Below are positions 9,001-63,630 of a stretch of DNA of 64,000 nucleotides, one piece after another. The notes under the pieces were generated by a model that was not told where the DNA came from, did not search any database, and saw only the letters and a list, made by a program, of their open reading frames with translations. A program made the translations under genes and the position numbers. The stretch spans positions 359,724,001 through 359,788,000 of the forward strand of contig OZ024742.1 in the NCBI GenBank assembly GCA_964016885.1, read 5' to 3'. Origin of the DNA: Eledone cirrhosa. Taxonomy: Eukaryota. Every line of letters starts with the position of its first letter. Position 1 is the first letter of the stretch.

Positions 9001-10624
9001 TGTGTGGTGAGGAGAAGGGAGAGATAATGTGGTGAGGAGAAGGGAGAGATAGTGTGGTGAGGAGAAGGGAGAGATAGTGTGGTGAGGAGAAGGGAGAGAC
9101 AGTCTGGTGAGGAGAAGGGAGAGATAATGTGGTGAGGAGAAGGGAGAGATAGTGTGGTGAGGAGAAGGGAGATATAATGTGGTGAGAAGAAGGGAGAGAT
9201 TGTGTGGTGAGGAGAAGGGAGAGATTGTGTGGTGAGGAGAAGGGAGATATAATGTGGTGAGAAGAAGGGAGAGACAGTGTGGTGAGGAGAAGGGAGAGAT
9301 TGTGTGGTGAGGAGAAGGGAGAGATAATGTAGTGAGGTGGAGGGAGAGATAGTGTGGTGAGGAGAAGGGAGAGATAGTGTGGTGAGGAGAAGGGAGAGAT
9401 AGTGTGGTGAGGAGAAGGGAGAGACAGTCTGGTGAGGAGAAGGGAGAGATAATGTGGTGAGGAGAAGGGAGAGATAGTGTGGTGAGGAGAAGGGAGAGAC
9501 AGTGTGGTGAGGAGAAGGGAGAGATTGTGTGGTGAGGAGAAGGGAGAGATAATGTAGTGAGGTGGAGGGAGAGATAGTGTGGTGAGGAGAAGGGAGATAT
9601 AATGTGGTGAGAAGAAGGGAGAGACAGTGTGGTGAGGAGAAGGGAGATATAATGTGGTGAGAAGAAGGGAGAGACAGTGTGGTGAGGAGAAGGGAGAGAT
9701 TGTGTGGTGAGGAGAAGGGAGAGATAATGTAGTGAGGTGGAGGGAGAGATAGTGTGGTGAGGAGAAGGGAGATATAATGTGGTGAGAAGAAGGGAGAGAT
9801 AGTGTGGTGAGGAGAAGGGAGATATAATGTGGTGAGAAGAAGGGAGAGACAGTGTGGTGAGGAGAAGGGAGAGATTGTGTGGTGAGGAGAAGGGAGAGAT
9901 AATGTAGTGAGGTGGAGGGAGAGATAGTGTGGTGAGGAGAAGGGAGAGATAGTGTGGTGAGGAGAAGGGAGAGATAGTGTGGTGAGGAGAAGGGAGAGAC
10001 AGTCTGGTGAGGAGAAGGGAGAGATAATGTGGTGAGGAGAAGGGAGAGATAGTGTGGTGAGGAGAAGGGAGAGACAGTGTGGTGAGGAGAAGGGAGAGAT
10101 TGTGTGGTGAGGAGAAGGGAGAGATAATGTAGTGAGGTGGAGGGAGAGATAGTGTGGTGAGGAGAAGGGAGAGATAGTGTGGTGAGGAGAAGGGAGAGAT
10201 AGTGTGGTGAGGAGAAGGGAGAGACAGTCTGGTGAGGAGAAGGGAGAGATAATGTGGTGAGGAGAAGGGAGAGATAGTGTGGTGAGGAGAAGGGAGAGAC
10301 AGTGTGGTGAGGAGAAGGGAGAGATTGTGTGGTGAGGAGAAGGGAGAGATAATGTGGTGAGGAGAAGGGAGAGATGGTGTGGTGAGGAGAAGGGAGAGAT
10401 AGTGTGGTGAGGAGAAGGGAGAGATAGTGTGGTGAGGAGAAGGGAGAGACAGTCTGGTGAGGAGAAGGGAGAGATAATGTGGTGAGGAGAAGGGAGAGAT
10501 GGTGTGGTGAGGAGAAGGGAGAGATAGTGTGGTGAGGAGAAGGGAGAGATAGTGTGGTGAGGAGAAGGGAGAGATAGTGTGGTGAGGAGAAGGGAGAGCT
10601 AGTGTGGTGAGGAGAAGGGAGAGC
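1..10624. repeat. 25-bp minisatellite (GAGGAGAAGGGAGAGATAGTGTGGT)n, ~425 units, continues off the left edge
   Basis: Unit read directly; point variants (ACAG, ATAAT, GGTGGAGG) and 22-bp deletion variants; + strand almost C-free. Confidence 0.98.
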
Positions 10625-11483
10625 TGATAAAGTAAAAAGCATTCTCATGTCTTTCGTGTTGGTCTCTTTATAATACGATATGTTTGTGTCTGAGAGACTT
10701 TTGACAGAAACCAATGTGCTCACTAATCAAAGAAAGTTCATGTCACGCCATTGCACAAGCCTGCACGCACCAATTATCATTTCTTTGGCAAGAAGATACT
10801 AGTGAATGAATATTTACGTATGTATCTACATTGATGTGTACGTTAATATGATTATTCAGCTATATATTAGGATTTATACAGTCACATATGAATGATGAGT
10901 TGGTTTTGTTTAGCAACCAGTCAACCCCCATCGAATAAATCTATAATCAAAGGCTTTCCGTCCATAACCATAGGCTTATATATAAATACATTATCTAATG
11001 TCTCCGTCTATGCCTATCCTAAAAATGTTATTATTTTTGTTTTCGCAAACTTAGGCGAAATGATAGGTGATTTTTGTAGTGAAGATGTTACTTCAGTATT
11101 ACAATATGTACCTCCTACGATATTAACACAGCTTTAAAGACATGGGTAAAGTGTTGGTATAGAGGTGATACATTACAAATCTCTATCACATACTAGTAGG
11201 AAAAATTAACATACACCAAACCATAAGCTATGTCACATATTTCAAATGGGATGTAATTTTGGGGCAGAGCATTCCAGTTAGGTGAAGCAAAAGGATGCCT
11301 AACGAAGCCAAACAAAGTTAACGAAGCTAGACAAAGGCTAACGAGATTTAAGAAGTCTAACGAGATTTGACGAGGACTAACGAACCTAGAAGTAACCATC
11401 ACTCTGATACCCATAATTTTTAACTAAATATTTGCCGTATGATACGTTACAAGTATATATATATATATATATATATATACAAA

Positions 11484-12278: not shown

Positions 12279-12361
12279 TATATATATATATATATATACA
12301 ATATTAAATAAATGGAAACTATATTTATAAAACCATATTTATTTCATTATATATATTTCAG

Positions 12362-12772
12362 AAGACATACCCGTTCCAAAGACCCTCATGTATAGATAAG
12401 AAATGTATAACCTGTAAAATAAGCCCCCATATTAACTGTAAAACTAGAAATGTAGTGTATAGCATAAGATGTACTGAAGGACAATGTAGAAACAAAAATA
12501 TAGTGTACATAGGTGAGACAGCTCGTAGTATAGGGGAACGAATAAATGAACACTGGCGAGACCTCCAAGATAATAAAGAATCATCTGTGCTCTACCAACA
12601 TGCTAAGATAGAACACAGGGGTAGATTAGAGAGCATAGAAATAAAAATAGAATCCACGCACAGAAAAGACGCAATGTTTAGGCAAATTACAGAGGCAGTA
12701 AGCATAAAAGAATTAAAACCAAAATTAAATAGAAAATATGAGTGGAACAGCAACATCACAACTTACAATTAA
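12362..12772 (+). pseudogene. PLE Cys-linker + GIY-YIG endonuclease fragment
   Basis: Frame open upstream of the annotated 12455 start; VVY..YIGET, R..EH, E and LN motifs. Confidence 0.88.
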
Positions 12773-13087
12773 GGACAAAATGAAAACACACACACACATA
12801 GAACAAACAACTTACAATTGAAAACACACACAAAATGAAAACACACACAGGACAAAATGAAAACACACACACACATAGAACAAACAACCAACCAACAATA
12901 AATAAATAAATAAATAAATAAATAAACAAATAGAAAAATATAAATAGAAAAATAGAAAAATGAACACAAACACACACAGACACCCGGATGTGGCGCATGC
13001 GCAAACTGAGCACACAACACACACACAGAAACAAAATGGCGTAGGATAGAAGAAAGGAAAGGCCCAGAAACGAAGAAAGGAATCCCC

Positions 13088-13132
13088 AGTCACTGAAGAG
13101 GTCACAGAGTGTGTGACGAAAGGACTATGACT
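13088..13132 (+). ncRNA. Minimal type I HHR in family C pLTR
   Basis: AGTCA CTGAAGA G GTCACA-gagtg-TGTGAC GAAA GgaC TA TGACT. Confidence 0.75.
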
Positions 13133-13292
13133 ATATATATAAACAACTATCTGGTTGTGGAACCAACCAACCAACCAGATATTTATAGGTTTGTAGATTT
13201 GTAAATTTATAAATTTATAAATATATAATAAATTGAAGTGAAAGCAACTGGTGCGTGTGTTTCTTATTGGCAACATGACCCTCCCAAAGTAT

Positions 13293-13336
<44 letters not shown>

Positions 13337-13338
<2 letters not shown>

Positions 13339-14450
13339 AAATTGTAGTTTACTTAAAGCATTGTGTAGTTAAGTATAAATATTTGGAGTTAGAATGCCAA
13401 AACAATGCAGGTATGGATATAGAATATAAATACAAAAGCAAAAGAGATCGCTGACAATTAGTCTTTTACCTGAAATTTATTTCAATATCCTTAATTTTCG
13501 AGATAATATCTCTTCTTCGGAGGGAAGTTAAGGGGTTAATCCAGTGTTCTAATTAGCTTGCCAAGTCATGCTGACAGGAAATAGTATAGAAATTCCATTC
13601 TATTTCTAATGTCAAAGAGTGAAGGTTAGATGGATAAAGAGTTGTCTGCCTTTAAAAAAGGGTTTGGACATGTATGTTTAAGTGTGTGTGGGAGAATACG
13701 TCAAGGTGTAAGCATGCGTGTGTGTGTGTGTGTGTATGTGCGTGTGTGTGAGAGGATATGTTTATAGGTAAATGTGGGGTCTAGATGCTCTATCATGTTA
13801 AAACTATTCTATGTGTATGTATGTATGTGTGTGAGAGAGAATAAGTGAAGGTGTAAGCGTGCGTGTGTGTTTGTGAGATGGTACGTGGAGGTGTAAGTGT
13901 GGGGCTAGGTGCTCTATCATGTTAAAAATTGGGTGTTGAGTTCTATTCTGTTATTGATTGGTGTTTGTGTTTTGTCTATAATCAGTGCTTCTTTAATTCT
14001 AAGATTGCCGAGGTTTCTTTCTTTAGCTTCTATCCTAACTATTATGTTTTTGTCGGTGATTTTGCATTTCAATCGGTGTTTCTTAAATGAGGAAGCGTTA
14101 GTGTTCAGGTGTTCTTTTATTCTAATGTGAAATGGTCTGGTGGTGCTACCCATGTAGAAATTGCTGAATTTGTCGCACTCTAATCTGTATACGACGTAAG
14201 CCTGGTGGCATAGGTCTGTGTCGTCGATGGGGCAGTTGGCTAGCCTGCACTGGCTGTCATGTCTGGTGGAGTATCTTTTGGTTAGCTGTCCGCTTAGAGA
14301 AGGTCCTGAGTGGGCTAGCTGGATATCTAATCCCTCTCGTCTGATAGCTCTGCGGATGGCTGTTGTTGTTTCGTCACTGAAGTGTGGGAGCTTCAGGAAG
14401 CAGGTGTTAGTGCCTCGGATGTGGTGTCCTCTGTTGTTTCTAAACGTGAA
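13337..14450 (-). mobile_element. 5'-truncated PLE (family A): GIY-YIG region, 3' UTR and pLTR
   Basis: Minus-strand LKLPHFSDE..CRLANCP..CHQAYVVYRLECD..FYMGSTTRPFHIRIKEH..IKEALII..INNRIE; ~90% similar by eye to 30750-31740. Confidence 0.9.
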
Positions 14451-15313
14451 TTAATTGAACAGAATACTAATATAAAGACCACTAACTATAGAAGATGCAG
14501 AGATAGAAAGTACTTATGGTTCAATTCAGTGTTTAACTCCTCTATAAAAACAAAACTACCTTATACTTTCTTCAAATTAGTTGATAAACACTTCCCTAAA
14601 ATTCATAAATATCATAAAATCTTTAATAGAAAAACTATCAAACTATCATACTCCACTGCCAACAACATAGAATCGCACATACATAAAATTAACTATAAAA
14701 GAATTTATAATACAAGTAACCCGCAAATAAGTACCATAACACCAAATACAAAACATAAACATATAACATCATCACAACCAAACACACGTCAGAACACATC
14801 ACCACAATACATCAACAAACCCAATTCTCGGCCCATACATAACAATTTACAAAACCATATAGAAGAACTGGCACAAAGGAAAGCATCTAAATGTAATTGT
14901 CATCTACCTGAAAAATGCCCATTACAAAATAGATGCCTAGAGTCTAATATAGTATACCTATGTACTATAAATTCAGGCAGCTTAGCATGGCACTACATAG
15001 GATTACAACTGGAGAATTTAAGAAAATGTGGTATGTCCACAGACACTCTATGAATAATAGGAAGCTCATAAATACAACTCTCGCCAATAAAATCTGGCAA
15101 CTCAGAGATGCAAACATGGAATATAAAATCAGCTGGACGAAGCTATCAACAGTAACGGCCTATCGAATTGGCATGTCCCACTGTGGTCTTTGTAATATGG
15201 AACTTTTCCAAATTTTAAATTACAACAAAATGCTACTTAACAGTAAAATTGAAAGAACTCTTTTCTGTAGGCATAAAACGGCGACCAAATTTGATAACTT
15301 TAGACCAGCTTAA
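14451..15313 (+). pseudogene. PLE thumb/linker/GIY-YIG C-terminus with a frameshift near 15002
   Basis: ORFs 14382-15053 and 14960-15313 join at YIG|ITTGEFKK..H; CGLC..E..LLNSK..CRHK. Confidence 0.85.
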
Positions 15314-16474: not shown

Positions 16475-16694
16475 AAATAAATTCCCCTTTTTGTACTGTT
16501 GACCATGTTATTCTTCACTTTTTGCGTGTATTTATTATTGGCAACATGACCCTCCCAAAGCATAACAATATCGGTTTCAACACACGTTTTCAGATAAAGA
16601 ACCTTGCTAAACAAATTCAGAAACGAAATATATTATATATATATATAGAATGAAACAGTTCTAGTCCTGTAGAATCTCATCTATATTAAAACTA

Positions 16695-16738
<44 letters not shown>

Positions 16739-17207
16739 TAAACGGAATAGAAAATGCTGACAAATTGTTCACAGTTGAAAAATGGTTTAATTAGGAATAA
16801 AAGAGTATTAGTGATTGTATGGGTTAGTATTCAGTTGTGGTTTTAAGTTTTTAAGTTTTTACCGGTTGCGCATTTCTAAATGCTTTTCAAAAATAATTTT
16901 GAGATAGAGTGTCCGTGCTGTTTGCTCTGATCTGATTAGTTTTGGGAATTCTACCTGTTTTTATGTTAAAAAAGTGGCTCCAGCGTTATTTTTGCGTTGC
17001 AAAAATGCTTGTGGTCAAAACAATTTTGATTGGTCGGTAGAGGTCATGTGAATGTAAAAAGTTGATTTTGCGCCAAGACTGTTTTTATGTTAAAAAAGTG
17101 GCTCCAGCAAAAATTCTTGGTCAAAACAATTTTGATTGGTCGGTAGAGGTTATGTGGATAAAAAATTGGTTTTGCGCCAAGATTGAGAAATGACTCTTTC
17201 ACAACAA

Positions 17208-17334
<127 letters not shown>

Positions 17335-17460
17335 TGTGTGTAGTAGTAGTAGTAAGGTGTTCGATGCTGCGACAATGGCCAGCAGCGATGTGTGTCAAAT
17401 GGCTATTAAGATAAGTGTGTGTGTGTGGGGGGGGGTGTATAACAGAGTAATTCGATGGTC

Positions 17461-18027
17461 GAATCGCACAACAACTTCTCAAACCCCCAAACCTCAAAGA
17501 AACGAAGAAGGAAGCACCACACCGAAGATGAACTTCCCAACCTCGCTACCATAAGAAGGAACAAAAACCCAGGAAATCATCTCCCCCAGAATGACATTTA
17601 CAACTTTCCCCCTTCAAGGAGACACCATACCAAATCACTCAACTACTACGTGGATTCCTCATCGTCAAACATAGGGAAAAGATACCACCGCCATGATAGA
17701 TGCAACAACTTCCCCGCTTCAAGGGGACAGCAAGGTAATTACCATTTTCTCAACTCTCACTTCCACAATACACAACAAACCCACACCATACGATACAACC
17801 AACAACGTAGGCCACTTACAACACCACAATACAACATGGCACATAGAAACACACACCCATACTCGCAGTACAGGAACACCCCATTCAATCTACAACCACC
17901 AACCCGAACCACATTTTACAACAACAAGGAATATAATAAACACAGGAGACCACTTAACATCAGCAGACAACCTCTCTACCCCAACCATTTTTTAGACACA
18001 GCACACAGATACAGGCAAACAAAATAA
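17461..18027 (+). pseudogene. 3' part of upstream ORF1 (basic, N/R/H-rich), overlapping the RT frame
   Basis: Open 190-aa frame whose ATG (17455) lies in the inverted arm; ends ..NHFLD..; positionally equivalent to 62042-63256. Confidence 0.6.
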
Positions 18028-20312
18028 CACAAGACAGGGAGGAGAAACCGATAGTAATAAAAATTATCAATCTTACTAGTGCAGAACCAACACCCAACCT
18101 TATCAACTTACTCTCCAAAGGTCTTAAATTCACACCAACCCCACTACGTCCTAACTACTATGAAATGAAGGAAGACATCACAGACTTCTGTAGAAAGTTA
18201 CGACTTAGTGAACAACTATTCGACCAGTACAATGAGGATGAATCATTAGCCAGAAATAGAAGCAATTACACCCCTTCAAAAGGTAGAAATAAAATCCTGG
18301 ACGAATTCTGTGAACACATCACAAACTTCCCTTACCAACACTTGCACAGACAAAAACACAAGCCAAACCTCAACAAGAAAGAATGGGAAGAATTAAATAG
18401 ATTAAAAACCGACAGAACCATTACAATTAAAGAGGCTGATAAAGGGAGTACAGTAGTCCTAATGGAGACAGAATTCTATATCAACTTAGCGCTCTCCACT
18501 TTGGAAAACGAAACATACTACGAAAAGGCTGAACACTACAATCAACAGAAAATTATGAGAAACCTAAAAACTCTAATCAACCAATACAAAGAAGGACTCA
18601 CTAACAAGGAATTCAGCTTCATCACAGACTTCACAAGTAAATCCAGCCTTTTCTACGGTATCCCTAAAGTACATAAAAGCGAATCAATCAGTAAGGCATG
18701 CAAGGAAGCCACAGACATAGTCATCAATGTCCCCTCACCCAATGATCTCAAATTAAGACCTATAATAGCAGGCCCCGCTTGCGAAACGCACCGTCTTAGC
18801 AACTTCATTGATACCCTTCTCAAACCCTTCCCCAAGCACATCAAAAGCTATATAAGGGACGACCTAGATATGCTCAATCACCTCCCTAATATGCCACTTT
18901 ATGAACAAACCCTACTAGTGATGTTCGATGTAGTCAACCTATACTCCAACATCCCCCACAACCTAGGAATAGAAGCTATCCAATTCTGGCTGGATAATTT
19001 CCACAATGAACTCCCACAACGCATCAAAAAAGAATTCGTGATAGAGGGACTCAAATTTATCTTGGAGAACAATTACTTCGTTTTCAATAACAAACCCTAC
19101 AGGCAGAAATCTGGGACCGCTATGGGAACGAAAACAGCCCCTACTTATGCCAACCTAGTCATGGGATACCTGGAAATCACCCTCTACACTAAAGTCCTAA
19201 ACAAATTTGGAAACACCCTCCACTTACACATTGAAAGGAACTGGAAGCGATATCTAGATGACTGCTTCATCCTTTGGCACGAAAACATCGAAAAACTTAA
19301 AGAATTTCACACCCTTATAAATGGGCTCAACACAAATATTAACTTCACGATGGAATACAGCCATCAACAACTCCCCTTCCTCGACATCCTCATTAAGATC
19401 CATAACAAAAAAATAGAAACAGACATATACTACAAGCCCACAGACTCCAAGCAATATCTCCCCTTCAACTCTTGCCACCCTAGACACGTTAAAATTAATA
19501 TTCCCTACAACTTAGCCAAGAGAATCTGTACTATAGTCTCCAATAAAAACATCTGCTACTTACGGCTACAAGAACTAAAGGACACACTCATAGGCAGGGA
19601 CTACCCTGCATCACTAATTGACAATGGAATCCAACGTGCCCTAAAACTCAGTACCCAGGACCTTAGACACCCTAAAGTAAATCAACCAAAACTAAAAGCT
19701 CTTCCATACATCTCCACACACAACCCCCTCAACAATGAGGCCTTTGACACCATCCTCCAGAACATCCCTGTATTGAAAAAGGACCATAGAATGAACCAAA
19801 TTCTACGAACACACGATATCATAAAGAGCAAAAGACAATCCAAGTCAATGAAAAACATCTTAACACATGCCAAAGTACTGCCAACCACAACAACGAAACC
19901 CACAGTAAAAAAAGGCGATAGACCCAACTGTGGCATTTGCATCAACCTAATAGAGGGTTCGGAATTCTCTTTCAAAGATGGACAACGTTTTATAGTAAAA
20001 CACAATTTCACATGTGCATCGGAAAATCTAATATATGTATTAACTTGTTCAGGTTGTCGAGAACAATACATAGGCCAGACCAAAAAAAACCTCCGCCAAC
20101 GCATGACTGTCCATAGATCCCAAATTAAAATACGGGAATACAGGAAAATACCACTGAGTGAACACATTGATACCTGTGCCGCCCAAAATCATCCCAACTT
20201 CAGAATCTTTCCCCTCTACAAATTTAAAGATAATGCCACCCACACCCAGCGCATCAGCAAGGAATCTTACTTCATTAACAAATACGGACCCCGTCTAAAC
20301 ACTTCTCCCTAA
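17958..20312 (+). CDS. PLE reverse transcriptase + GIY-YIG endonuclease (Neptune-like)
   Basis: Frame open from 17958 (KIINL..LLSKGLKFTPTP precedes the first ATG at 18165); EADKG, FYGIPKVHK, RPII, DVVNLYSNIPH, GTAMG, WKRYLDD, FLD, C..C, NLIY..C..C..YIGQT. Confidence 0.95.
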   Translation, partial: HQQTTSLPQPFFRHSTQIQANKITQDREEKPIVIKIINLTSAEPTPNLINLLSKGLKFTPTPLRPNYYEMKEDITDFCRKLRLSEQLFDQYNEDESLARNRSNYTPSKGRNKILDEFCEHITNFPYQHLHRQKHKPNLNKKEWEELNRLKTDRTITIKEADKGSTVVLMETEFYINLALSTLENETYYEKAEHYNQQKIMRNLKTLINQYKEGLTNKEFSFITDFTSKSSLFYGIPKVHKSESISKACKEATDIVINVPSPNDLKLRPIIAGPACETHRLSNFIDTLLKPFPKHIKSYIRDDLDMLNHLPNMPLYEQTLLVMFDVVNLYSNIPHNLGIEAIQFWLDNFHNELPQRIKKEFVIEGLKFILENNYFVFNNKPYRQKSGTAMGTKTAPTYANLVMGYLEITLYTKVLNKFGNTLHLHIERNWKRYLDDCFILWHENIEKLKEFHTLINGLNTNINFTMEYSHQQLPFLDILIKIHNKKIETDIYYKPTDSKQYLPFNSCHPRHVKINIPYNLAKRICTIVSNKNICYLRLQELKDTLIGRDYPASLIDNGIQRALKLSTQDLRHPKVNQPKLKALPYISTHNPLNNEAFDTILQNIPVLKKDHRMNQILRTHDIIKSKRQSKSMKNILTHAKVLPTTTTKPTVKKGDRPNCGICINLIEGSEFSFKDGQRFIVKHNFTCASENLIYVLTCSGCREQYIGQTKKNLRQRMTVHRSQIKIREYRKIPLSEHIDTCAAQNHPNFRIFPLYKFKDNATHTQRISKESYFINKYGPRLNTSP

Positions 20313-20931
20313 GACGAACCCACAACATACACACGTCAACATACATACCTACATCAGCACACATCTCTACCCACATATAAACACAATGACACACGTAAAC
20401 ACACATGCTCTATGGTGCAATACAAAAAAATATATGTGCATATATATGTATGTATATATGTATATATATATATATATATGTAGTGAATATATGTATGTGT
20501 ATATATATATAGTGAATATCATTTCACACCTTTTATTGTTAAGATTTTTGATGTTCTATTAAGAGAACCGATTTTACTGAAAAAATCGAATAATGTACAC
20601 CATTTTACCAGGGGGAAAAAAATACTGGTCCACCCACACACACACACACACACACATATATACACAAACACATACACACGCGTACATCAACATACAAAGA
20701 GACTTATACACACACACACCCACACACACGCACTTCTCCGTATAAGACAAAAGCTGAAAAATATCTTTTGACATGCTAAAATACTTTCAGACACATTCTT
20801 ACTGACCATCGAATTACTCTGCTATACACACACACACACACACACACTTATCTTAATAGCCATTTGACACACATCGCTGCTGGCCATTGTCGCAGCATCG
20901 AACACCTTACTACTACTACTACACACACACA

Positions 20932-21020
<89 letters not shown>

Positions 21021-21340
21021 CCATATTTGTTGTGAAAGAATTATTTCTCAATCTTTGCGCAAAACCAATTTTTTATCCACATGACCTCTACCGACCAATC
21101 AAAATTGTTTTGACCAAGAATTTTTGCTGGAGCCACTTTTTTAACATAAAAACAGTCTTGGCGCAAAATCAACTTTTTACATTCACATGACCTCTACCGA
21201 CCAATCAAAATTGTTTTGACCACAAGCATTTTTGCAACACAAAAATGACGCTGGAGCCACTTTTTTAACATAAAAACAGGTAGAATTCCCAAAACTAATC
21301 AGATCAGAGCAAACAGCACGGACACTCTATCTCAAAATTA

Positions 21341-21377
21341 TTTTTGAAAAGCATTTAGAAATGCGCAACCGGTAAAA
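21341..21377 (+). ncRNA. Degenerate minimal HHR (UUGAAAA core, GCAA instead of GAAA); mirror copy at 16857-16893 (-)
   Basis: TTT TTGAAAA GCAT-ttagaa-ATGC GCAA CCGG TA AAA; same layout as the intact motif at 27725-27760. Confidence 0.5.
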
Positions 21378-21601
21378 ACTTAAAAACTTAAAACCACAAC
21401 TGAATACTAACCCATACAATCACTAATACTCTTTTATTCCTAATTAAACCATTTTTCAACTGTGAACAATTTGTCAGCATTTTCTATTCCGTTTACCAAT
21501 ATATAATAACTTGTGTGTTACACCTCTATTCTTTTAACTATATATATATATATATATATATATAGTTTTAATATAGATGAGATTCTACAGGACTAGAACT
21601 G

Positions 21602-21686
<85 letters not shown>

Positions 21687-30748: not shown

Positions 30749-32427
30749 AGAGGAAATTGTAGTTCACTTGAAGCATTGCGTAATGAGGTATAAATGTTTG
30801 GAGTTAGAAGGCCAAAACAATGTAGGTATGGATATAGAATATAAATACAAATGCAAAAGATATTGTTGACAATTAGTCTTTTACCTTAAATTTATTTAAG
30901 TATCCTTAATTTTCGAGATAATATCTCTTCTTCGGAGGGAAGTAAAGGGGTTAATCCAGTGTTCTAATTAGCTTGCCAAGTCATGCTGACAGGAAATGGT
31001 ATAGAAATTCCATTCTATTTCTAATGTCAAGAAGTGAAGGTTAGGTGGATAAAGAGTTGTCTCCCTTTAAAAAGGGGTTTTGACATGTATGTTTAAGTGT
31101 GTGTGGGAGAATACGTGAAGGTGTAAGCATGCGTGTGTGTGTGCGTGTGTGAGTGTGAGAGGATATGTTTATATGTAAATGTGGGGGCTAGATGCTCTAT
31201 CATGTTAAAACTGGTCTTTGTGTGTGTGTGAGAGAGAATAAGTGGAGGTGTAAGCGTGTGAGTGTGTGTGTGTGTGTACGTGTGTGTGTGTGTGTGAGAG
31301 ATGGTACGTGGAGGTGTAAGCGTGGGGCGAGGTGCTCTATCATGTTAAAAATTGGGTGTTGAGTTCTATTCTGTTATTGATTGGTGTTTGTGTTTTGTCT
31401 ATAATCAGTGCTTCTTTAATTCTAAGATTGCCGAGGTTTCTTTCCTTAGCTTCTATCCTATTATGTTTTTATCGGTGTTTTTGCATTTCACTAGATGTTT
31501 CTTAAACGAGGAAGCGTTAGTGTTCAGGTGTTCTTTTATTCTAATGTGAAATGGTCTGGTGGTGCTACCTACGTAGAAATTGCTGCATTTGTCGCACTCT
31601 AATCTGTATACGACGTAAGCCTGGTGGCATAGGTCTGTGTCGTTGATGGGGCAGTTGGCTAGCCTGCAGCGGCTGTCATGTCTGGTTATGTGTCTTTTGG
31701 TTAGCTGTCCGCCTAAAGAAGGTCCTGAGTGGGCTAGTTGGAAGTCCTCTGCAACCACGCAGTCCGTCAATAAATCGACAGCTGGATGAGCGGGGACTGT
31801 AGTGTAGAGGGAGACAACGTCGAGGCTAAAGGCGTATCTATTTAATTTAAGTTGTTCTGGCTGGAGTTGGTGTAGTCTACGTATGACTTCGTCGGAGCTA
31901 CTGACATGCCCAGGAAAGGTGGAGAGTAGAGGCTTGAGGACCTGAAAGAGGAGCCAGGAGATTTTGTATAGGGGTCCTTCTATGCTAGAGACGATGGTTC
32001 TTATTTGCATCTTAGTACTATTCTTCTGGGTCTTGATGAGGTGATAGAAAGTGGGCAGTCTGCTATTTCTAGTGGTGTAATTGAACTTAAATTTATTTGG
32101 GAGTTGTCTTCTACTACAGATGTCGAACCAGACGGAGTTGGCCTGTTTTTCAATCTGGGCTGCAGTTATGTCCGGGATCTCTGTATACAGTTCGTTGTTG
32201 CTTAAGTGTTCAAAGGCTAGGTTGTTGTATGTGGCTTGAGAGATGACACAAAACAAAACTCTTTACCTTTGTGGGATGGTAAGTATATGAGTTCCCTATT
32301 CTGCAGGTTCTTCAGGGCGAGTTGTTGCGTCCTGGGGAGGTTTGAGGTTATTGTCAGCAATATCTTTTGCATTTGTATTTATATTCTATATCCATACCTG
32401 CATTGTTTTGGCCTTCTAACTCCAAAC

Positions 32428-38923: not shown

Positions 38924-40486
38924 AATGGGGAGAGAGAACGAGAAAGAGAGAGAGAAGGGGACAGAAAAAAGCTAAGAGAAGGGGAAGGAAAGGCGATATA
39001 CACCGAGTTCGTAATTGTAGTTTGCTGATCGCACTTAAGTATCCATTTATTACGATAAGCAAGGTACTGGCTTGTAGTGTGGGTGGGGGGGATATAGTTA
39101 GGAAGTATTATTGAGTGAAATTAGTTAGCGAGAAAGTGATGTAGTAGTCTCGTGTTCATATTATGTTAAGTTACTTTTATAGTGAGAAAATTTAGCCTTC
39201 AGTTTGAGGTTGCAGTATAACGATCGTTCGATTCTGTCATTAGTTGTTTTTAGATTTTAAGATATAAAAAAGTTCAAGGTCGCATAATCTGCAGTACTTC
39301 AATCCACTCCGATATGCACTAGCGCTGGATAATTTATCCCATTTTAGGTTGAACTGCCGGTTGTATTCACGGAGTTGCCAGGTCTTATTAGCGAGCGTGG
39401 TTACATAACGGTGTTCAAGATGTTTAATCGAAAATCGATGACGATACCAGCGTGATTTAAAGGACGTAGTGGTAGACCCGACGTAATACAATTTCTGGTC
39501 GTTTGATTCGACAGTGCATTGATAAACAATGTTGGACTCTAGGCATTTATTCTTCAATGGGCATCTCTCATGTAGGTGGCAGTTGCAGCTTTTGTTATGG
39601 GTAACAGCTGTACCTTGGATAGGTTGGGATAACAGTTCAGGTGGGTTGTGTAATACTTGTCTCCCATTTGGTGGTTGGGAGGTTGATATTACGTTATGCT
39701 CATCAGATTCTAAAATATTTTGTGTTGTTTAATAATTGCTTTAAGTTAAGTTTTTTTATGTATGCTTCTAGGTTTGGTGCAGTGGAGTATGATAGCTTAA
39801 CAGTCTTAGAGTTTAGAATTTTACTGTATTTATGGGAATTAGGGAAAAGCTTGTTAATTCACTTAAAGAATGAAAGAGATAGTTTCGTACTAATCGAAGC
39901 ATTAAAAATGGGATTATACCAGATATACTTTCTACAACGTACTTTATTTGAGTTTGGTGATGATTTTCTATTATTAGTATGTCTGGTGGTACTGTGTGTG
40001 TGCGCTTGTATTTCTGTAAAACAGGTTTCATATTCTTCGATTTCGTGTGTTGCTATGTGTGCTCTGGTGATTCTTATCAATGTATTCTACTTTATCCCGG
40101 TGGTCAGCATTCCTTAATGCGTTATTATAGTATTCTTCATGTTCCCTGAAAATCTGAGAGTTAGACGATAGGCGAGAGATTCTGAGAGAAATACTACGAG
40201 GAACCGATTTGATCATGGAAAGTGGGTGATTCGAATTAAAATTAATATAGGTAAGGTTCTCATTTATTTTATGGAAGGGTCGTATCAGTCCTGTATTCAA
40301 ATTAAGAGTTACGTCTAGAAAATTCACTTCTTTAAGATTGTATTCGTACGTTATTTTCAGACCCAGTTCGCTAAAAGATTTCCAAAATGTTTTGCCGTAG
40401 CCTTTCAAGATTTTGGTTATTTAAGTTATTAGAGACGACGCGCTTCTATTAGTTAATAACTTAAATAACCAAAATCTTAAAAGGCG
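38401..40486 (-). mobile_element. 5'-truncated, frameshifted PLE (family B, WFN-type) ending in a fold-back
   Basis: VNFLDVTLNL..YIN..SNHP..SISLRISRLSSN; KYIWYNP; CLESNIVYQC..YYVGST..FKSRW..H; CRLCDLE; hairpin 40400-40486. Confidence 0.88.
38436..38566 (-). ncRNA. Candidate HHR with large branched stem II
   Basis: CT CTGAAGA c TTGGTAG..CTACCAA..hairpin.. GAAA CatttG TA AG; weak stem I. Confidence 0.4.
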
Positions 40487-55325: not shown

Positions 55326-57661
55326 TTATACTTCTCTTAGGTCAGTGTTGTTTGTTTGGGTGTTGTTGTTATTCCATTCGTTCTTTCTGTTTAGTCTTGT
55401 CCTTCTAAGTTCTATTTCACTGGCCTCTCTGATTTGCCTATCTGCTGGGTCATTTCTATCTTTAGATATTATTCTAATTTCTATGTTGTCTATGTTACCG
55501 TCGTGTTGTTGTCTGGCATGTTCGTATAGTACTGAACCGTTTTTTCGTCCTTTTAGTTCCCCCCAGTGTTGGTCTATCCTTTCACCTATGCTACGAACTG
55601 TCTCGCCTATGTATGTTGTTGTCATGTTTCTGCAAGTATCCTCTGTACATCTTATGCTATAGACTACGTTTCTAGTTTTACAGTTTATCCGGGGTTTTAC
55701 CTTACATATGATACATTTCCTATTAGTACAGTGGGTTTTCTTAAAAGGGTAGGTTTTGCTGATCAGGGATTTTATGGTGGTTCCTGGCTTTTCTACCGCC
55801 TTAATCTTTAAGTGGGTCTTTCTCAGGGCCTTTCTACACTGGTTAGCTAATTTCCCTCCAGGGGAAGCGTCCACAAACATGACACTCTGGTATCTCTGGT
55901 TGTCGTACCATGAGTTGGCTTTCCCTATCTTATGTCTAGCCCTATCTAAGCTATTCCATGATTTGCTCCTGTATAATGGGCAAATTCCTTTCATGTCCAG
56001 TTCTATGAGGGTCTTATACTTCTCCATGGCTCCTTCGTATACTCTGACTCTGTCTCTTTGGTTGTAGCCAGAGAACTGCATGCGGTTGATGAAGTGTTGG
56101 ATGTGTCTTTCCATTTCTGTTGGGTCGCACATGCGGGACACATTCTTCATCACTCGTACCAAATCTGCTGAGTTTTTGAGTATCAGGTATTTGGAGGCCA
56201 TGGGTTTAGCATAGTGTGAGTGGAGAATTTGGGCTCTCTCGTCTATAGTGTTAATCCAGAGTTCCGTCTCTAATACAGGTAGTCTATTGTTAGGGTGTTT
56301 GGAAGGGTAGTCGATAGTTACAGTTATACTCTGGTGTATGGAATTAGCTATCTGCTGGATGCTTTCCATTGTGCTACGTTCTAAATCAAACTTGTTAATG
56401 CTCTCTAGTGGGGATGTTCTTATTACTATATTGATATCGTCTACGTAACGAGAGTACATGATGAGGTCTATGGAGCTCTCATTAAGGAGATCTTTAAGTC
56501 TCCTTTCCCACCATACCATAAAAAGGTTGGCAACATCACCAGCTATGCTGACGCCAATGGCTGCTCCCTCATTTGGGTGTAGATCTTCTCGTTGAACTTG
56601 AATATGTGGCCCTTTAGGGTAGTTTTGATACTAGCCCCTATTGCATGTGCGACCATTTTTCTAACCTGGTCATTGTTTTGGGGGGTCCGTATAGCTTTGG
56701 TCCGCTCAATCCACCTCCCCATGGGAGTCTTTTTTGCCATTGAGGTTATGGTGGGGTGTCTACCTCTTATGGGTCTACTAGGGCAGAAACGTCTAAGGTC
56801 ATGGCTGTCTAGGTAGTCAGTGTCGTAGGTAAGTCTAAGTAGGAGGCCCAGTTCGTCTGTGTCGACGTCGCAGAACTCCACCTCACTCTCAATGATCATC
56901 TCCACACATTTTTCTACAGCAAAATCAATGTTAATGGATGGGTACAGTGATACCACATCCATGCTGCCTATTATGCAGTTGGATAGGTTCCTGTTTTTGT
57001 TGCACTCACTGATTCTGCTGAGGAGGTCCTCTGTACTGTCACATACATCTGGGGACATCTTAATTATGGGGCGTATAACCATTGAGAGGAAGTAGGAGAT
57101 CCTGTAGTTGCTAGCTATATTAGCTCTGCATACGGGTCTTGTTGGTAGTCCTGTTGTCGGGTCGTCGACTGTCTTGTGGTTTTTGCGGAGCCCATACAAG
57201 GGTGGTATGCCATTGTTAGACGCCTGGAAGTTGTTGGCAGTGCGTCTGCTTGGCTTTAGGATGTCAGTCCACATCATCATGTGAGCGTTGAGGATTTTCT
57301 CTCTCCCATTATGTGTTTGCTGTGCAATTTCGCTCGTGTTGGTGATGTGGGGTTGCATAGCCTTGATGTAGTTCAGCATGCTATATATTGACATCCTACC
57401 AGACTTACCTGTGGGTAGACATACTACCTCACCATCCCTTGTGCGCTGCTTGAGGCTAACCAAGCCTTCTACAGGTTTCCCCCCAAGTTGTTGGGCCTCT
57501 GGTCTGCTCTGTCTCTTAGTATACCTGTTTACTATTTGTCTAATATTATTTCTAGCTATGGTGAACTGTGCCTCTGTCTCGTCATCTATTTGTTGTGGTA
57601 TGAAAACTCTTTTATTAAAGGGTAACCTCGTAGGATAGATATTACCCATCTTAGAAAACAT
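55326..57661 (-). pseudogene. PLE RT + GIY-YIG, frameshift near 56570
   Basis: PPLYGLRK, TRPVC, MDVVSLYPSI, GAAIG, YSRYVDD, NCKTRNVVY..YIGET. Confidence 0.92.
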
Positions 57662-57691
57662 ATAAGATGGGTAATATCTCTCCTACGAGGT

Positions 57692-57758
<67 letters not shown>

Positions 57759-58374
57759 TGGAAAATGTGTGTAATCCTTGGTACAGTTAGGTATATTAAG
57801 ACAGGGGGGAAGAAAAAAATGGCTTCACTTGTGCTTTCAACAAATTTATTTTCTTCACAAAATCCCAAAAGAATTTTTTTCCGGATTAGAAAAATTTTTT
57901 TATTAAAAAAAAATATTTTATAAATTAAGTTGTTGGTTGGTGGTTAGGTCTTAGGAGTTCTTGGTTAACGTAGGAGGTATTGTTTCGTTTTTAGAACGAC
58001 CTTTCACGCTGAGGTGCGCTTGTCAAACTGATGTGTATGTGGTGTGTTGTTCTATATATAGGGATTTAACATGTCTGTGGTGTGGTGGGGGGTTTTTTCT
58101 CCCGCTTTAATAAGTGTAGGGGTGTAGGTGTGTTGAAAAAGTGTTAATAGCAGTAATGAGTTGAGACGGTGAGTAGGGTTTGGTGGGGAGAAATGTAACA
58201 AGTGCGGCCTGCCCCGGTCATTCTCGAAAAATTCCTTTATTCAGGGGAAAAAGCTTTTAGTATTCCTTTGTGTTGAGAATGGTCATAGGCAAACCGCACC
58301 TGCCAAGCTTGTAAACAATTATTTTTTTCTGAAGGATTTTTCTACGTCCATCCCCAAATTTGTCCTTTGTTCAA

Positions 58375-59730
<1,356 letters not shown>

Positions 59731-59813
59731 TCACCGTTCACTCAGATATTCATGTGTACACATAAGAAGAGGGGGGGGGGTAGTGAAATGGAATTTTACC
59801 TCCGAGTGTTAAT

Positions 59814-62144
59814 TCATTTTTTCGTGTTCAGTAGTGGTTTAAATTTTTCAATGAAGAATTCTTCTTTATATCTGCGGAAATGTTCGTTATCCGACCATAT
59901 CTTGAAGAAAGGGAAGATTGTGAATTTTCCCTTCCCGCATAATGCAAAGTGTGCGCTACATGTGGTATTTCTGACTGTGGGGTCTTTAATTTGTTGTTTA
60001 TGTACCCGGACTCTATCATGTAATCCCGTTCCGGTTTCCCCAATGTAATACTCTTTACACTGTGGACATGTTGCGCAATATATTAGGTTTTTCGTTTTGC
60101 AGTTCATGTTTGCATTGACCTTGAAATTATCATGGTTTTTGAAGGACAACTGTTTGCCCTCTTCGATGAGTTCACAGGTTCCACATCTAGGGTCCCCGCA
60201 TTTCGTCACTTGCATTGATTCCATGTTGGTCGTAAATTTTGCCTTGGTAATTAGCTTTTTAAGGTTGGGTGCTTGGCGTCTGCTATAAATTATCTGTGTG
60301 TTTTTTAAGAGTGCATTCATTTTGGTAGATTGCTGTAGAATCGGGAGATACTGCTTAGCAGTTTTCACAATGTTCATGTTCCCTGGGTTGTGAGTGATGA
60401 CAAAAGAGATAGCAGGGTTTTCTTTTTCATGTTGTGGGTTTGGTTTTCTCGGTGTTGTTATTGGGATGTTCTTAGCCTTGGAGATGGCAGCGTTGATGAG
60501 TTTCATCGGGTATTCTTGTTTTTTAAGGAATTTTTTCAGGTCACATAATCTTTTTTCTTGTAGTACGGGGTGTGTTGCTATAGTGCAGATGCGCCTTGCC
60601 ATGTTGAAGGGAATGTTCCTTTTCGTATGTGAGGGGTGTGCTGACCGGAAATTTAAGTATTGGTGTGTGTTAGTGGGTTTGCAAAATAGGTCCGTTATGA
60701 TATTTTCCCCTTCTTTAATGATGAGGATATCTAGAAAGGGCAGTTCCTTTTCGTTACATTCCATAGTGAATTGTATAGCTTCATGAAGCCTGTTTAAGAT
60801 CGAATAAAATTTTTGTAGGTCTGTTTGGCTTCTGTTCCAGAAGATGAAGCAGTCATCTAGGTAACGTTTCCAGTTTTTATTAATGTAGAAGGCGAAGTCT
60901 TGACTGAATGTTATCTGTAGTTGGGAATATAATTTTGCCTCTAAGTGACCCATAACGAGCGTTGCATATGTAGGGGCCACTTTCGTACCCATGGCTGTTC
61001 CTTTTATTTGTAGATAAAGTTCGTTGTCAAAGAGGAAGTGGTTGTTTTCCAATACTAATTTAAGTCCTTCCAAGATGAATTCTTTGGGGAATCTTTCTGA
61101 AATGTGACTTGAGTGTTTTGTAATCCAGAAGTCCACAGCTTCAATCCCTAGGTCGTGTGGGATGTTAGTGTACAGGCTTATTACATCAAAACTGACTAGG
61201 ATTCTATACTGGTGTACTTTTTGGGGGATATAGTTAAGGAATTCCATATCATCTCTGATGTAGCTTGGAACTTTTTTACATAGGGGTTTGAGTATGATGT
61301 CTATTAGGTTGCTTAGACGCTGTGTGCTTGAGGCTGGGCCAGCAATAATGGGGCGTAATTTTAAGTCTGTCGGTTTTGATGCTTCGATGTATGATGTATT
61401 TTTCCCTTTTATGTTGTTTTGGATTTCTATGGATTTGTGAATTTTTGGTAATCCATAGAAATTGCTGGTTTTCATTTCGAAGTTGGTTAGGTAATCTACT
61501 TCTTTTGGTGTTAGGTTGTTTTGGTACTTTGTTGTTAGTTTGCCTATTTGGTTCCTCGATTTCCTTTCGTCGTTTTTAGTGATTTTCCTGTAGAAGTTTT
61601 CGTCATTCAAGTGTGCTAGAACCATATCTTTGTAGTGGTTTGTGTCCATGATGATGATTGCTCCACCTTTGTCCGCTTCTTTTATTATTATTGAGGAATC
61701 CCTTTGTAGCTTGTTCAATGGTAGTAGTTGGACTGTAGGGATGTTGCGTTTGTGTTTCGTCTCGGCCGTATTTGTGCGTGCTGATCGGCGAAGGCAGGTT
61801 ATGTACTCCTCCAGTTATTTATCTCTATTTAGCGGGGGTGTGAAGTTCTTTTTGTTTTTCACCAGTGATTCTTCCTCGTATTGTACACCCTGGAAGAATT
61901 CTCCTAAGCGTAATTTTCGACAGTATTCTTCTGTGTCTTTTATAACATCGGCTGTATCTGTTTTCGGAGTGGGAGTGAACTTCAGTCCATTTTCTCACAG
62001 TTGTATTTCTGGTTGTGTTAATTTCTTGGCTGATATATTGATTATTTTTGGTTCGATTGGTTCTTTCTCGTCAGGTGCCACTTGAAAGGTGGTGCTTTTT
62101 TCTTTTTTTCTTTCATTTGGTGCGAGGCCCCTAGTCCTAAAAAA
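59814..62144 (-). pseudogene. PLE RT + GIY-YIG (Neptune-like); intact 59814-61718, two nonsense codons upstream
   Basis: KIINIS..L*ENGLKFTPTP..CRKLRL, EADKGG, FYGLPKIHK, DVISLYTNIPH, GTAMG, WKRYLDD, CGDPRCGTC, NLIY..YIGET. Confidence 0.93.
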
Positions 62145-63256
62145 TGGGTGCCATTTGGGATAGGGGTGTTTCTGTTGTGGTGAAACCTTTGGCCCGCCGG
62201 AACTTCATGCCGGTAACTGGTTGGGCGATAGACTCTTGCGTGGTCGTTGCTGTATGGGAGTCTGGTTCTTCTGTTGTTTCGTTCAGTATTCATGTGACTT
62301 TGATTTTGTCTCCGGTAATTGTTCTTGGTGTTATGGCAGTGGCTGTATCTGGTTCTGGTGTTGAGTATTGGGTCTGTATGTAGTTGTGTGTTTGGGGTTA
62401 CCCAATATCTGGTTGTTGTTGGTTTATTGTGTGTGGGTGCTTCATTTCTTGTGTTGTTGTATTTTCCTGAGTTCTGGGGTTTCCTATGGGTTTGTTTTCT
62501 GGGTTTTATTTGGTCTTTCCCATAGTTATCTTCATATTCTTGAAGCCATTGAGTTCTTGACTCCAAGATTTTCTTTGATTTTAACTCCTCTCTAGTTGTA
62601 TCTGTCTGCCATAGGTTAAGGAGTTTTTCACGTACATTGCCGCTGCTTCTTTTGTTTATTTCCTCTTGGATGGTGGTGTCGCATTTTTCAAATTTCTCTT
62701 TGAATTTTGGCACTCTTAGGCGGAGTAGGGTGATTTCGGTCTCAAGTGTTTGGAGTGCTAGATTTAGTCTTGTTGCAGTTTCTTCCTTTGATTCCGATGG
62801 TATTTCTTTAATTCGGAATTTTCTCGGGAGGATAACTGGTTCCTTGCTACGCCATATTTCGTATGTGTCTGCTAGGTTTTCACTCCTCAAGGCTTTCCAG
62901 TATGCCTGTTTTCTTTGATTTAATAGTTGGTTCCAAATGTTTTTCATTTGGTTTCTTTTTCTGTAGGCTTCTTTTTCTAGATTCAGTTCATTCCATTCTT
63001 TGAATGCATTATTGGTGATGGAGTTCTGTTCATGTGTAGCTATTTCAGGGGAAAAGGTTTGTTCTTGTTTTTGTCGGTCTGTAATTAGTGAATCAAGTTT
63101 TTCCCTATAGCTGCGTGTTTGTTGTTCCATTTCTTGGACGGCATTCGTAAGGGAATCATATTTATCTATTATTATGGTGAGTTTTTCTGATATTTCCTGT
63201 AGTAGTGTCTCCGATTTGAAGGATTCAGTAGAGGATTTTGAACGTGTGTTAGCCAT
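62042..63256 (-). CDS. PLE ORF1, 404 aa, helical/coiled-coil-like N-part and basic disordered C-part
   Basis: ATG 24 nt after the 5' pLTR, uninterrupted, non-repetitive; overlaps the RT frame. Confidence 0.75.
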   Translation of the reverse strand: MANTRSKSSTESFKSETLLQEISEKLTIIIDKYDSLTNAVQEMEQQTRSYREKLDSLITDRQKQEQTFSPEIATHEQNSITNNAFKEWNELNLEKEAYRKRNQMKNIWNQLLNQRKQAYWKALRSENLADTYEIWRSKEPVILPRKFRIKEIPSESKEETATRLNLALQTLETEITLLRLRVPKFKEKFEKCDTTIQEEINKRSSGNVREKLLNLWQTDTTREELKSKKILESRTQWLQEYEDNYGKDQIKPRKQTHRKPQNSGKYNNTRNEAPTHNKPTTTRYWVTPNTQLHTDPILNTRTRYSHCHNTKNNYRRQNQSHMNTERNNRRTRLPYSNDHARVYRPTSYRHEVPAGQRFHHNRNTPIPNGTHFLGLGASHQMKEKKKKAPPFKWHLTRKNQSNQK

Positions 63257-63630
63257 TCTGTCTTGTACAAGGGGATAGAATATTGGAAAATGTGTGTAAT
63301 CCTTGGTACAGTTAGATATACTAAGACAGGGGGGAAGAAAAAAATGGCTTCACTTGTGCTTTCAACAAATTTATTTTCTTCACAAAATCCCAAAAGAATT
63401 TTTTTCCGGATTAGAAACAATTTTTTATTAAAAAAAATTATTTTATAAATTAAGTTGTTGGTTGTTGGTTAGGTCTTAGGAGTTCTTGGTTAACGTAGGA
63501 GGTATTGTTTCGTTTTTAGAACGACCTTTCACGCTGAGGTGCGCTTGTCAAACTGATGTGTATGTGGTGAGTTGTTCTATATATAGGGATTTAACATGTC
63601 TGTGGTGTGGTGTGTATATATATGTATATA

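Follow-up and report, generated by a model that had tools for sequence, protein, structure and literature searches.

A conserved slippery heptamer where ORF1 overlaps the reverse transcriptase frame in two-gene Neptune-like Penelope elements

Two Penelope-like elements and their junctions

The window, that is, the whole 64-kb stretch of Eledone cirrhosa DNA analysed here, contains two Penelope-like elements (PLEs), element 1 on the plus strand and element 2 on the minus strand. Judged from sequence, both are two-gene PLEs with an inherited, in-phase U_UUU_UUA where the first open reading frame (ORF1) overlaps the frame for reverse transcriptase (RT) and endonuclease (EN). The comparisons below argue that this conserved, inherited -1 slippery junction is a real trait of a two-ORF clade of Neptune-like PLEs. 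The features are listed with their positions in the window; pLTR stands for pseudo-long terminal repeat.

57755..63612, minus strand: element 2 (family F2), a full-length EN-bearing Penelope-like retrotransposon between (TA)n tracts, recognised by its direct pLTRs, its ORFs and copies of about 98% identity elsewhere in the genome G000
63280..63612, minus strand: 5' pLTR of element 2, 333 bp, a direct repeat of 57755-58087 (97.9% identical)
57755..58087, minus strand: 3' pLTR of element 2, a direct repeat of the 5' copy
62042..63256, minus strand: ORF1 of element 2, 404 aa, with a helical, coiled-coil-like N-terminal part of 245 aa and a low-complexity basic tail
62044-62042, minus strand: stop codon TAA of this ORF1, within the K-I-I codons of the RT frame by translation
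62138..62144, minus strand: slippery heptamer U_UUU_UUA of element 2 (ORF1 codons UUU UUA), followed by GGA; intact in 28 of the 30 best F2 loci
62096..62113, minus strand: A-rich run of element 2 encoding KEKKKK, codons +9 to +14 past the Leu, an indel hotspot and, speculatively, a candidate pause site
59814..62144, minus strand: RT-thumb-CX4CX2C linker-GIY-YIG frame of element 2, -1 to ORF1, from translation and Pfam
61997 and 61817, minus strand: stops in this RT frame, private by copy comparison
17988..17994, plus strand: slippery heptamer U_UUU_UUA of element 1 (family F1); intact in 30 of the 30 best F1 loci, with 385 exact 29-mer matches in G000
17443..18027, plus strand: 3' remnant of the element 1 ORF1 (the copy is 5'-truncated), its stop exactly 10 residues past the Leu
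17958..20312, plus strand: RT-GIY-YIG frame of element 1, open, -1 to its ORF1

The first-pass annotation had drawn attention to an 11-mer, CCATTTTTTAG, shared by both junctions in the same phase, and both points hold. The window holds exactly two occurrences of the 11-mer, 17985-17995 (+) and 62147-62137 (-), where 0.05 are expected, and a count of two was reached in none of 100 shuffles. At each place ORF1 is read as CAT TTT TTA G (H-F-L) and the -1 frame as P-F-F-R. U_UUU_UUA therefore stands at both junctions in the phase required for a -1 slip, and a heptamer of the form X_XXY_YYZ in phase inside an overlap is the canonical layout for -1 frameshifting. Past the site the -1 frame of both elements leads into KIIN, GLKFTPTP, RT and GIY-YIG. 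In element 2 it was said to do so with only two stops; it runs through KIINIS...GLKFTPTP, RT and GIY-YIG over 777 codons, and the two internal stops are private to the window copy, the other copies having TTA (26/27) and TAC (28/29) at these positions.

The protein of element 2 matches Pfam RVT_1 (E 3.6e-10) and GIY-YIG (E 2.3e-06). Between RT and EN lies a CX2-5CxxC linker of the Neptune/Nematis type (KCGDPRCGTCE), a CCHH motif with two Cys between GIY and YIG is read as LIYCATCPQCKEYYIG...VH...SAH, and the 333-bp direct repeats correspond to the pLTRs of EN-bearing (EN+) PLEs. A hammerhead ribozyme was not found, either as an Rfam hit at gathering score or as a simple core pattern near the elements, searches that minimal or variant forms would escape. 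The RT with C-terminal GIY-YIG and CCHH motif, the linker, the pLTRs and the microsatellite targets all resemble the EN+ PLEs of Neptune/Nematis type treated in Craig et al. 2021 (PMC8557442). These are described there, in the relevant passages, as single-ORF elements, whereas here a separate helical ORF1 of 400–450 aa overlaps RT at -1 and carries a conserved heptamer; the -1 offset is present in 45 of 53 F2 copies and in 30 of 30 F1 loci.

Conservation across copies, families and foreign loci

Fifty-three distinct F2 copies extend across the whole junction. The -1 offset is kept in the 45 just mentioned, while four have gained one base, three have lost one and a single copy has lost 15. High-depth contigs from public sequencing runs (four runs of one study, library type unrecorded) span the junction gap-free, one of them covering 61779-62524 at a depth of about 300. 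The -1 offset is the norm of the family and neither decay nor an assembly error; it is common to six families or subfamilies of G000, to foreign loci and to independent sequencing contigs, and the objection of the first-pass annotation to a random indel is thus borne out. In family F3 (e.g. L180, L200-L203) a variable C-run within the overlap shifts the phase between ORF1 and RT copy by copy, which is either a slippage hotspot or homopolymer error.

Further junctions were retrieved blind to the motif, with a pattern for the RT N-terminus alone that gave 937 matches in G000 (control 3). The first 30 of these loci represented F2, F2b, F3, F4 and F5, and the intact copies of every one of these have T_TTT_TTA in phase: 19 loci were in phase, five were shifted by indels, four had a mutated heptamer, one was truncated and one was a chance match. 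An RT scan of metagenomes yielded 74 loci, 50 of them with the RT N-terminus and 12 also matching the ORF1 profile. All 12 of the latter have an in-phase heptamer, namely U_UUU_UUA in six, U_UUU_UUG in five and C_CCU_UUU in one (L239). A metagenome scan by ORF1 alignment gave no confirmed locus.

The proposed check of synonymous sites also came out in favour of a constraint on the DNA: T_TTT_TT(A/G) spells 25 of 27 junction Phe-Leu pairs as compared with 7 of 61 pairs inside RT frames, for sites that were picked after viewing and are related by descent. What is conserved is shorter than the annotation had proposed when it took the 11-mer as the signal. Of 25 junctions only 2 have the exact 11-mer; the three bases preceding the heptamer (CCA in the window) vary freely, and a 3' G is favoured. 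Conservation is limited to the heptamer and this favoured G, the longer match in the window being a modest coincidence.

The flanking DNA of the two window elements is indeed dissimilar, as had been noted, with ungapped identities of 21/60 and 20/60 that equal background. The supposed dissimilarity of their ORF1 proteins stands for the copy of element 1 in the window, which is 5'-truncated (E 9.1), and fails for full-length F1 copies, whose 436-aa ORF1 is 32% identical to that of F2 over 237 residues (E 2e-28). The RTs of F1 and F2 are 42% identical. Homology of both the ORF1s and the RTs means that the two elements inherited the site from a common ancestor, and the independent recurrence proposed earlier has to be given up; the heptamer is, to judge by this divergence, a conserved island inherited by both elements, which argues for selection and not for a second origin. 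In an RT tree of unnamed rows, from which five too-short loci were left out, a branch (SH-aLRT 84) separates 21 rows with a slippery site from 11 that have none. Recurrence next to an unrelated ORF1 was seen at one foreign locus only. This locus, L270 (569-2260), is a distant PLE outside the slippery-site branch; its ORF1 is unmatched by the profile (score -1.1) and has U_UUU_UUA in phase with a stop two residues on. By eye the end of this ORF1 looks possibly SGNH-esterase-like, the Pfam match reaching only E 0.048.

ORF1 of element 2 belongs to no Pfam family. Its first 255 residues are predicted by AlphaFold2 (AF2) as five long helices with a pLDDT of 92. No Foldseek match was obtained for this fold at E<=0.001, and the best structural match (VIA Z 9.0, root-mean-square deviation 5.7 over 146 residues) is to generic helical bundles only; a first ESM Atlas match at 0.82, to an L1-type cluster, is no more than a lead. 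A profile search gave 555 clusters at E<1e-10, and Saccostrea is the named source of one close relative. Tails were counted in 112 of 154 ORF1 proteins, the other 42 being without core or tail. FL or FF lies within the last 45 residues in 94 of these 112 homologues (0.10 expected). Among the 94, the residue before Phe-Leu is His in 32; the one after it is Gly, Glu or Asp in 65, and Gly in 37.

The tails also show features of single subgroups. In a subgroup with a DHNW motif the Phe-Leu is replaced by C_CCU_UUU in L239 (about 2880-2890) and by Tyr-Phe-Arg in P0109 and P0157. In the F2 branch (P0059, P0065, P0067, P0079, P0103, P0121 and P0124; F4, P0051, P0057 and P0062) the tail has Gly-Gly(-Gly) at about +8 to +11 or ET(L/V/Y)(V/P)K near its end, motifs that could reflect RNA elements.

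Probable frameshifting and its alternatives

What the elements show directly is how the two frames are laid out and phased, that the heptamer is conserved in the DNA, and that the RT has no start codon it could use. Past the site, the RT frame has its first in-frame Met only at codon ~166 (F2) or ~60 (F1), in both cases behind the conserved KIIN and GLKFTP motifs. We consider it very probable that programmed -1 frameshifting yields a minor ORF1-RT-EN fusion. Ribosomes would slip back by one base at U_UUU_UUA, presumably with tRNA-Phe and tRNA-Leu slipping in tandem, as they do at HIV-1 gag-pol, and produce the fusion beside abundant ORF1 protein. The product ratio would then be similar to that of Gag and Gag-Pol, and the helical ORF1 protein may have a structural or RNA-binding role.

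Several observations weigh against this reading. U_UUU_UUG, found at five of the foreign loci, is a non-canonical heptamer. Four of the 53 F2 copies are brought into frame by the one-base gain. Three of them, L100 (G000:C3:109895600-109901600), L215 and L217, owe this to an extra A in the A-run; L100 is even open over 1,289 codons as a single frame. These three, and the non-fused L025 as well, have rare alleles in common. Either slippage in the A-run is frequent, or a few copies were made from a fused source element, in cis or trans; the fused form has not spread, yet the elements may be able to do without the frameshift. Usually -1 frameshifting requires a structure downstream (10.1101/469692), and nested folds 3' of the site are no stronger than shuffles (z +1.1, +0.5 and -0.9 for F2; +0.5, +0.1 and -1.4 for F1).

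Other explanations of the junction have been weighed. According to one, the heptamer is a by-product and the RT is translated separately, by ribosomes that reinitiate, enter internally or start at a non-AUG codon within the overlap. Separate translation of ORF2 is known from LINE-1 and TART, which counts for this explanation; a passage on TART in PMC5009743 bears on it, and the killifish Neptune is annotated as two separate ORFs in a part of PMC12602865. The first AUG, however, comes only after conserved motifs of the RT N-terminus, and its place differs between F1 and F2; separate translation would also leave unexplained why the codons are fixed as T_TTT_TT(A/G) or swapped for another heptamer in the same phase (L239). 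We therefore regard it as very improbable.

To the same small degree we believe in slippage of a polymerase, either RNA polymerase or RT, which at the U6 run would add one base in some transcripts or copies and so supply the fused protein. HIV RT makes +1/-1 indels at U6A in vitro, as a passage of PMC5737442 states, and the F2 run has seven T in 3 of 54 copies and five in one. A polymerase would slip regardless of codon phase, but all intact junctions have the same phase; moreover the run stays at six U rather than growing, and fused copies occur without a sweep of the family, as the 45 of 53 copies with the offset demonstrate.

The motif could also be a 3' splice acceptor, a pyrimidine run with AG joining an upstream exon to the RT frame. 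TTTTTTAG, present at 18 of 25 junctions, resembles a 3' splice site, and introns occur in PLEs according to the legend of Fig. 1 in PMC8557442. The AG is absent at 7 of 25 junctions, including F4 (where the ORF1 frame is open over 451 codons and the site reads TTTTTTA|ACG), L256 and the TTG class, and an acceptor would need no codon phase for its U-run. Foreign sequence joined at the AG was found in 0 F1 copies against 385 unspliced ones, a weak argument as PLE copies may derive from unspliced RNA, and the favoured G is accounted for by the 3' context of HIV type given in a passage of PMC5737442. There is little likelihood left for splicing. A random indel or assembly error in dead copies of an active single-ORF element, for which the open frame of L100 and the description of canonical EN+ PLEs as single-ORF in passages of PMC8557442 could be cited, is refuted by the copy counts and by the same offset in six G000 families or subfamilies, foreign loci and independent contigs, and can practically be dismissed. 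Among the ORF1 homologues no long fused one was found, which is a weak test.

Programmed frameshifting as preferred here has a close parallel in the HIV-1 gag-pol site, AAU-UUU-UUA-GGG, where the GGG matters for frameshifting (passage of PMC5737442). Heptamer, phase, favoured 3' G and Gly codon agree with what parts of PMC5737442 and PMC5009743 give for HIV-1; there is no homology, so the likeness is convergent, and at most sites here no clear nearby hairpin corresponds to the stem-loop stimulator of HIV-1. Among PLEs, the legend of Fig. 1 in PMC8557442 mentions a frameshift with a pseudoknot that can set ORF1 apart, and the clade so marked may include Neptune, in which case a frameshift would have been noted there before. 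Like those elements, ours have a coiled-coil ORF1 joined to RT, by a presumed frameshift; unlike them they are EN-bearing and interspersed, with no significant fold in F1 or F2. The pseudoknot-bearing elements are reportedly the Athena/Terminons of Arkhipova et al. 2017. The Neptune repeat.CL27 of Fundulus (PMC12602865) shares an unannotated ORF1 upstream of an RT/GIY-YIG ORF2, but is reported as two non-overlapping ORFs in a paper in which the word frameshift is absent. Our literature search found no paper on slippery-site frameshifting in Neptune elements; figures, Repbase/Dfam entries and subscription papers lay outside it and may already note one.

If the frameshift is confirmed, a widespread group of EN-bearing PLEs has a hidden gag-pol design like that of retroviruses, and the full-length RT-EN enzyme carries an ORF1 extension of ~370 residues. 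Repeat libraries would then truncate PLE proteins or mistake a real signal for decay. The hundreds of diverged junctions would be a natural panel for how U_UUU_UUA works with little downstream structure, and would bear on the terminating ribosome as a natural eukaryotic stimulator.

Candidate stimulators and surroundings of the elements

A clear hairpin near the site is present in 3 of 25 sites only, in L290 (z -4.2, 5 nt downstream) and, weaker, in L252 and L265 (about -2.4). A long hairpin pairing GGUGCC with GGCACC and UGAAAG with CUUUCA in the F2 and F2b folds was rejected: it falls short of significance, and no double compensatory changes from one subfamily to the other were apparent by eye.

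The distance from the slippery Leu to the ORF1 stop was determined in the 94 proteins. It is exactly 10 residues in 26, nine in one and shorter in none, with two to four proteins each at 11–18. This floor of 10 is not absolute, the distance being four residues in L245 and two in L270. In a quick ORF1 tree the 10-residue state is found in 29 of 98 rows; it is clustered and needs 11 changes, of which at least five are forced by well-supported branches. Element 1 is in the 10-residue class, whereas element 2 has 31 residues and belongs to a branch of 25 rows with zero 10-residue members. The two elements of the window thus stand on opposite sides of this split and offer a ready comparison pair. 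A periodicity of stops at 20 and 30 residues was dropped, as the stop in F2, F3 and F5 is simply made by the K-I-I codons of the RT frame.

Ribosomes in yeast need a gap of at least ten codons to collide, and in human cells disomes accumulate at stop codons (parts of 10.1101/2023.02.01.526718). In the E. coli reporters of Smith et al. 2019, a slow stop 8–10 codons downstream raises -1 slipping of the trailing ribosome, with a peak at a 9-codon spacer (passages of PMC6815119). The branch of element 1 has its stop at a matching codon spacing past the heptamer. The reporters are synthetic and bacterial, unlike the natural eukaryotic spacing seen here, which is present in the element 1 branch and absent from that of element 2. 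A terminating ribosome suggests itself as the roadblock because many branches keep the ORF1 stop exactly 10 residues past the Leu. For the branch of element 1, queueing behind a ribosome terminating 10 codons downstream is our best guess, held at somewhat less than even confidence.

For element 2 three possibilities were considered. The U6A-G context might suffice alone at low efficiency, which has nearly an even chance of being right; a weak or protein-stabilised RNA fold might act instead, a tentative proposal we rank below it; and a collision with a ribosome slowed on the lysine/A run is improbable. A peak of lysine at +11 in long-tailed ORF1s is slight (15/58 against 12/58 at +7), and a general polybasic stall is unsupported, this peak being too slight in the long-tailed relatives. 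The more sweeping view, that a large animal PLE clade frameshifts by ribosome collisions without an RNA-structure stimulator, with the terminating ribosome as roadblock, and that the branch of element 2 lost the stop and uses a lysine/poly(A) pause at the same distance, seems doubtful to us.

The surroundings of the elements show some further features. Element 1 is accompanied by inverted arms of ~810 bp, 91% identical, at 16647-17460 and 20804-21610, with an internal tandem duplication of 107 bp. Inside element 2 a (TA)/(TG) microsatellite tract of 1.3 kb lies between the EN stop and the 3' pLTR (58390-59750). The word depth of contigs reaches 22,000–78,000 over 63219-63590, the 5' pLTR of element 2, as compared with about 300–600 over ORF1, which points to a short, non-autonomous and highly abundant derivative of this pLTR. 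Decayed RT/GIY-YIG fragments of other Penelope-like families are located at 55326-57682 (-), 12308-15313, 31453-32262 and 39240-40420, and element 2 is inserted beside one such fragment. Positions 1-10726 of the window form a long tandem array of a short unit in which all three minus-strand frames are open over thousands of codons.

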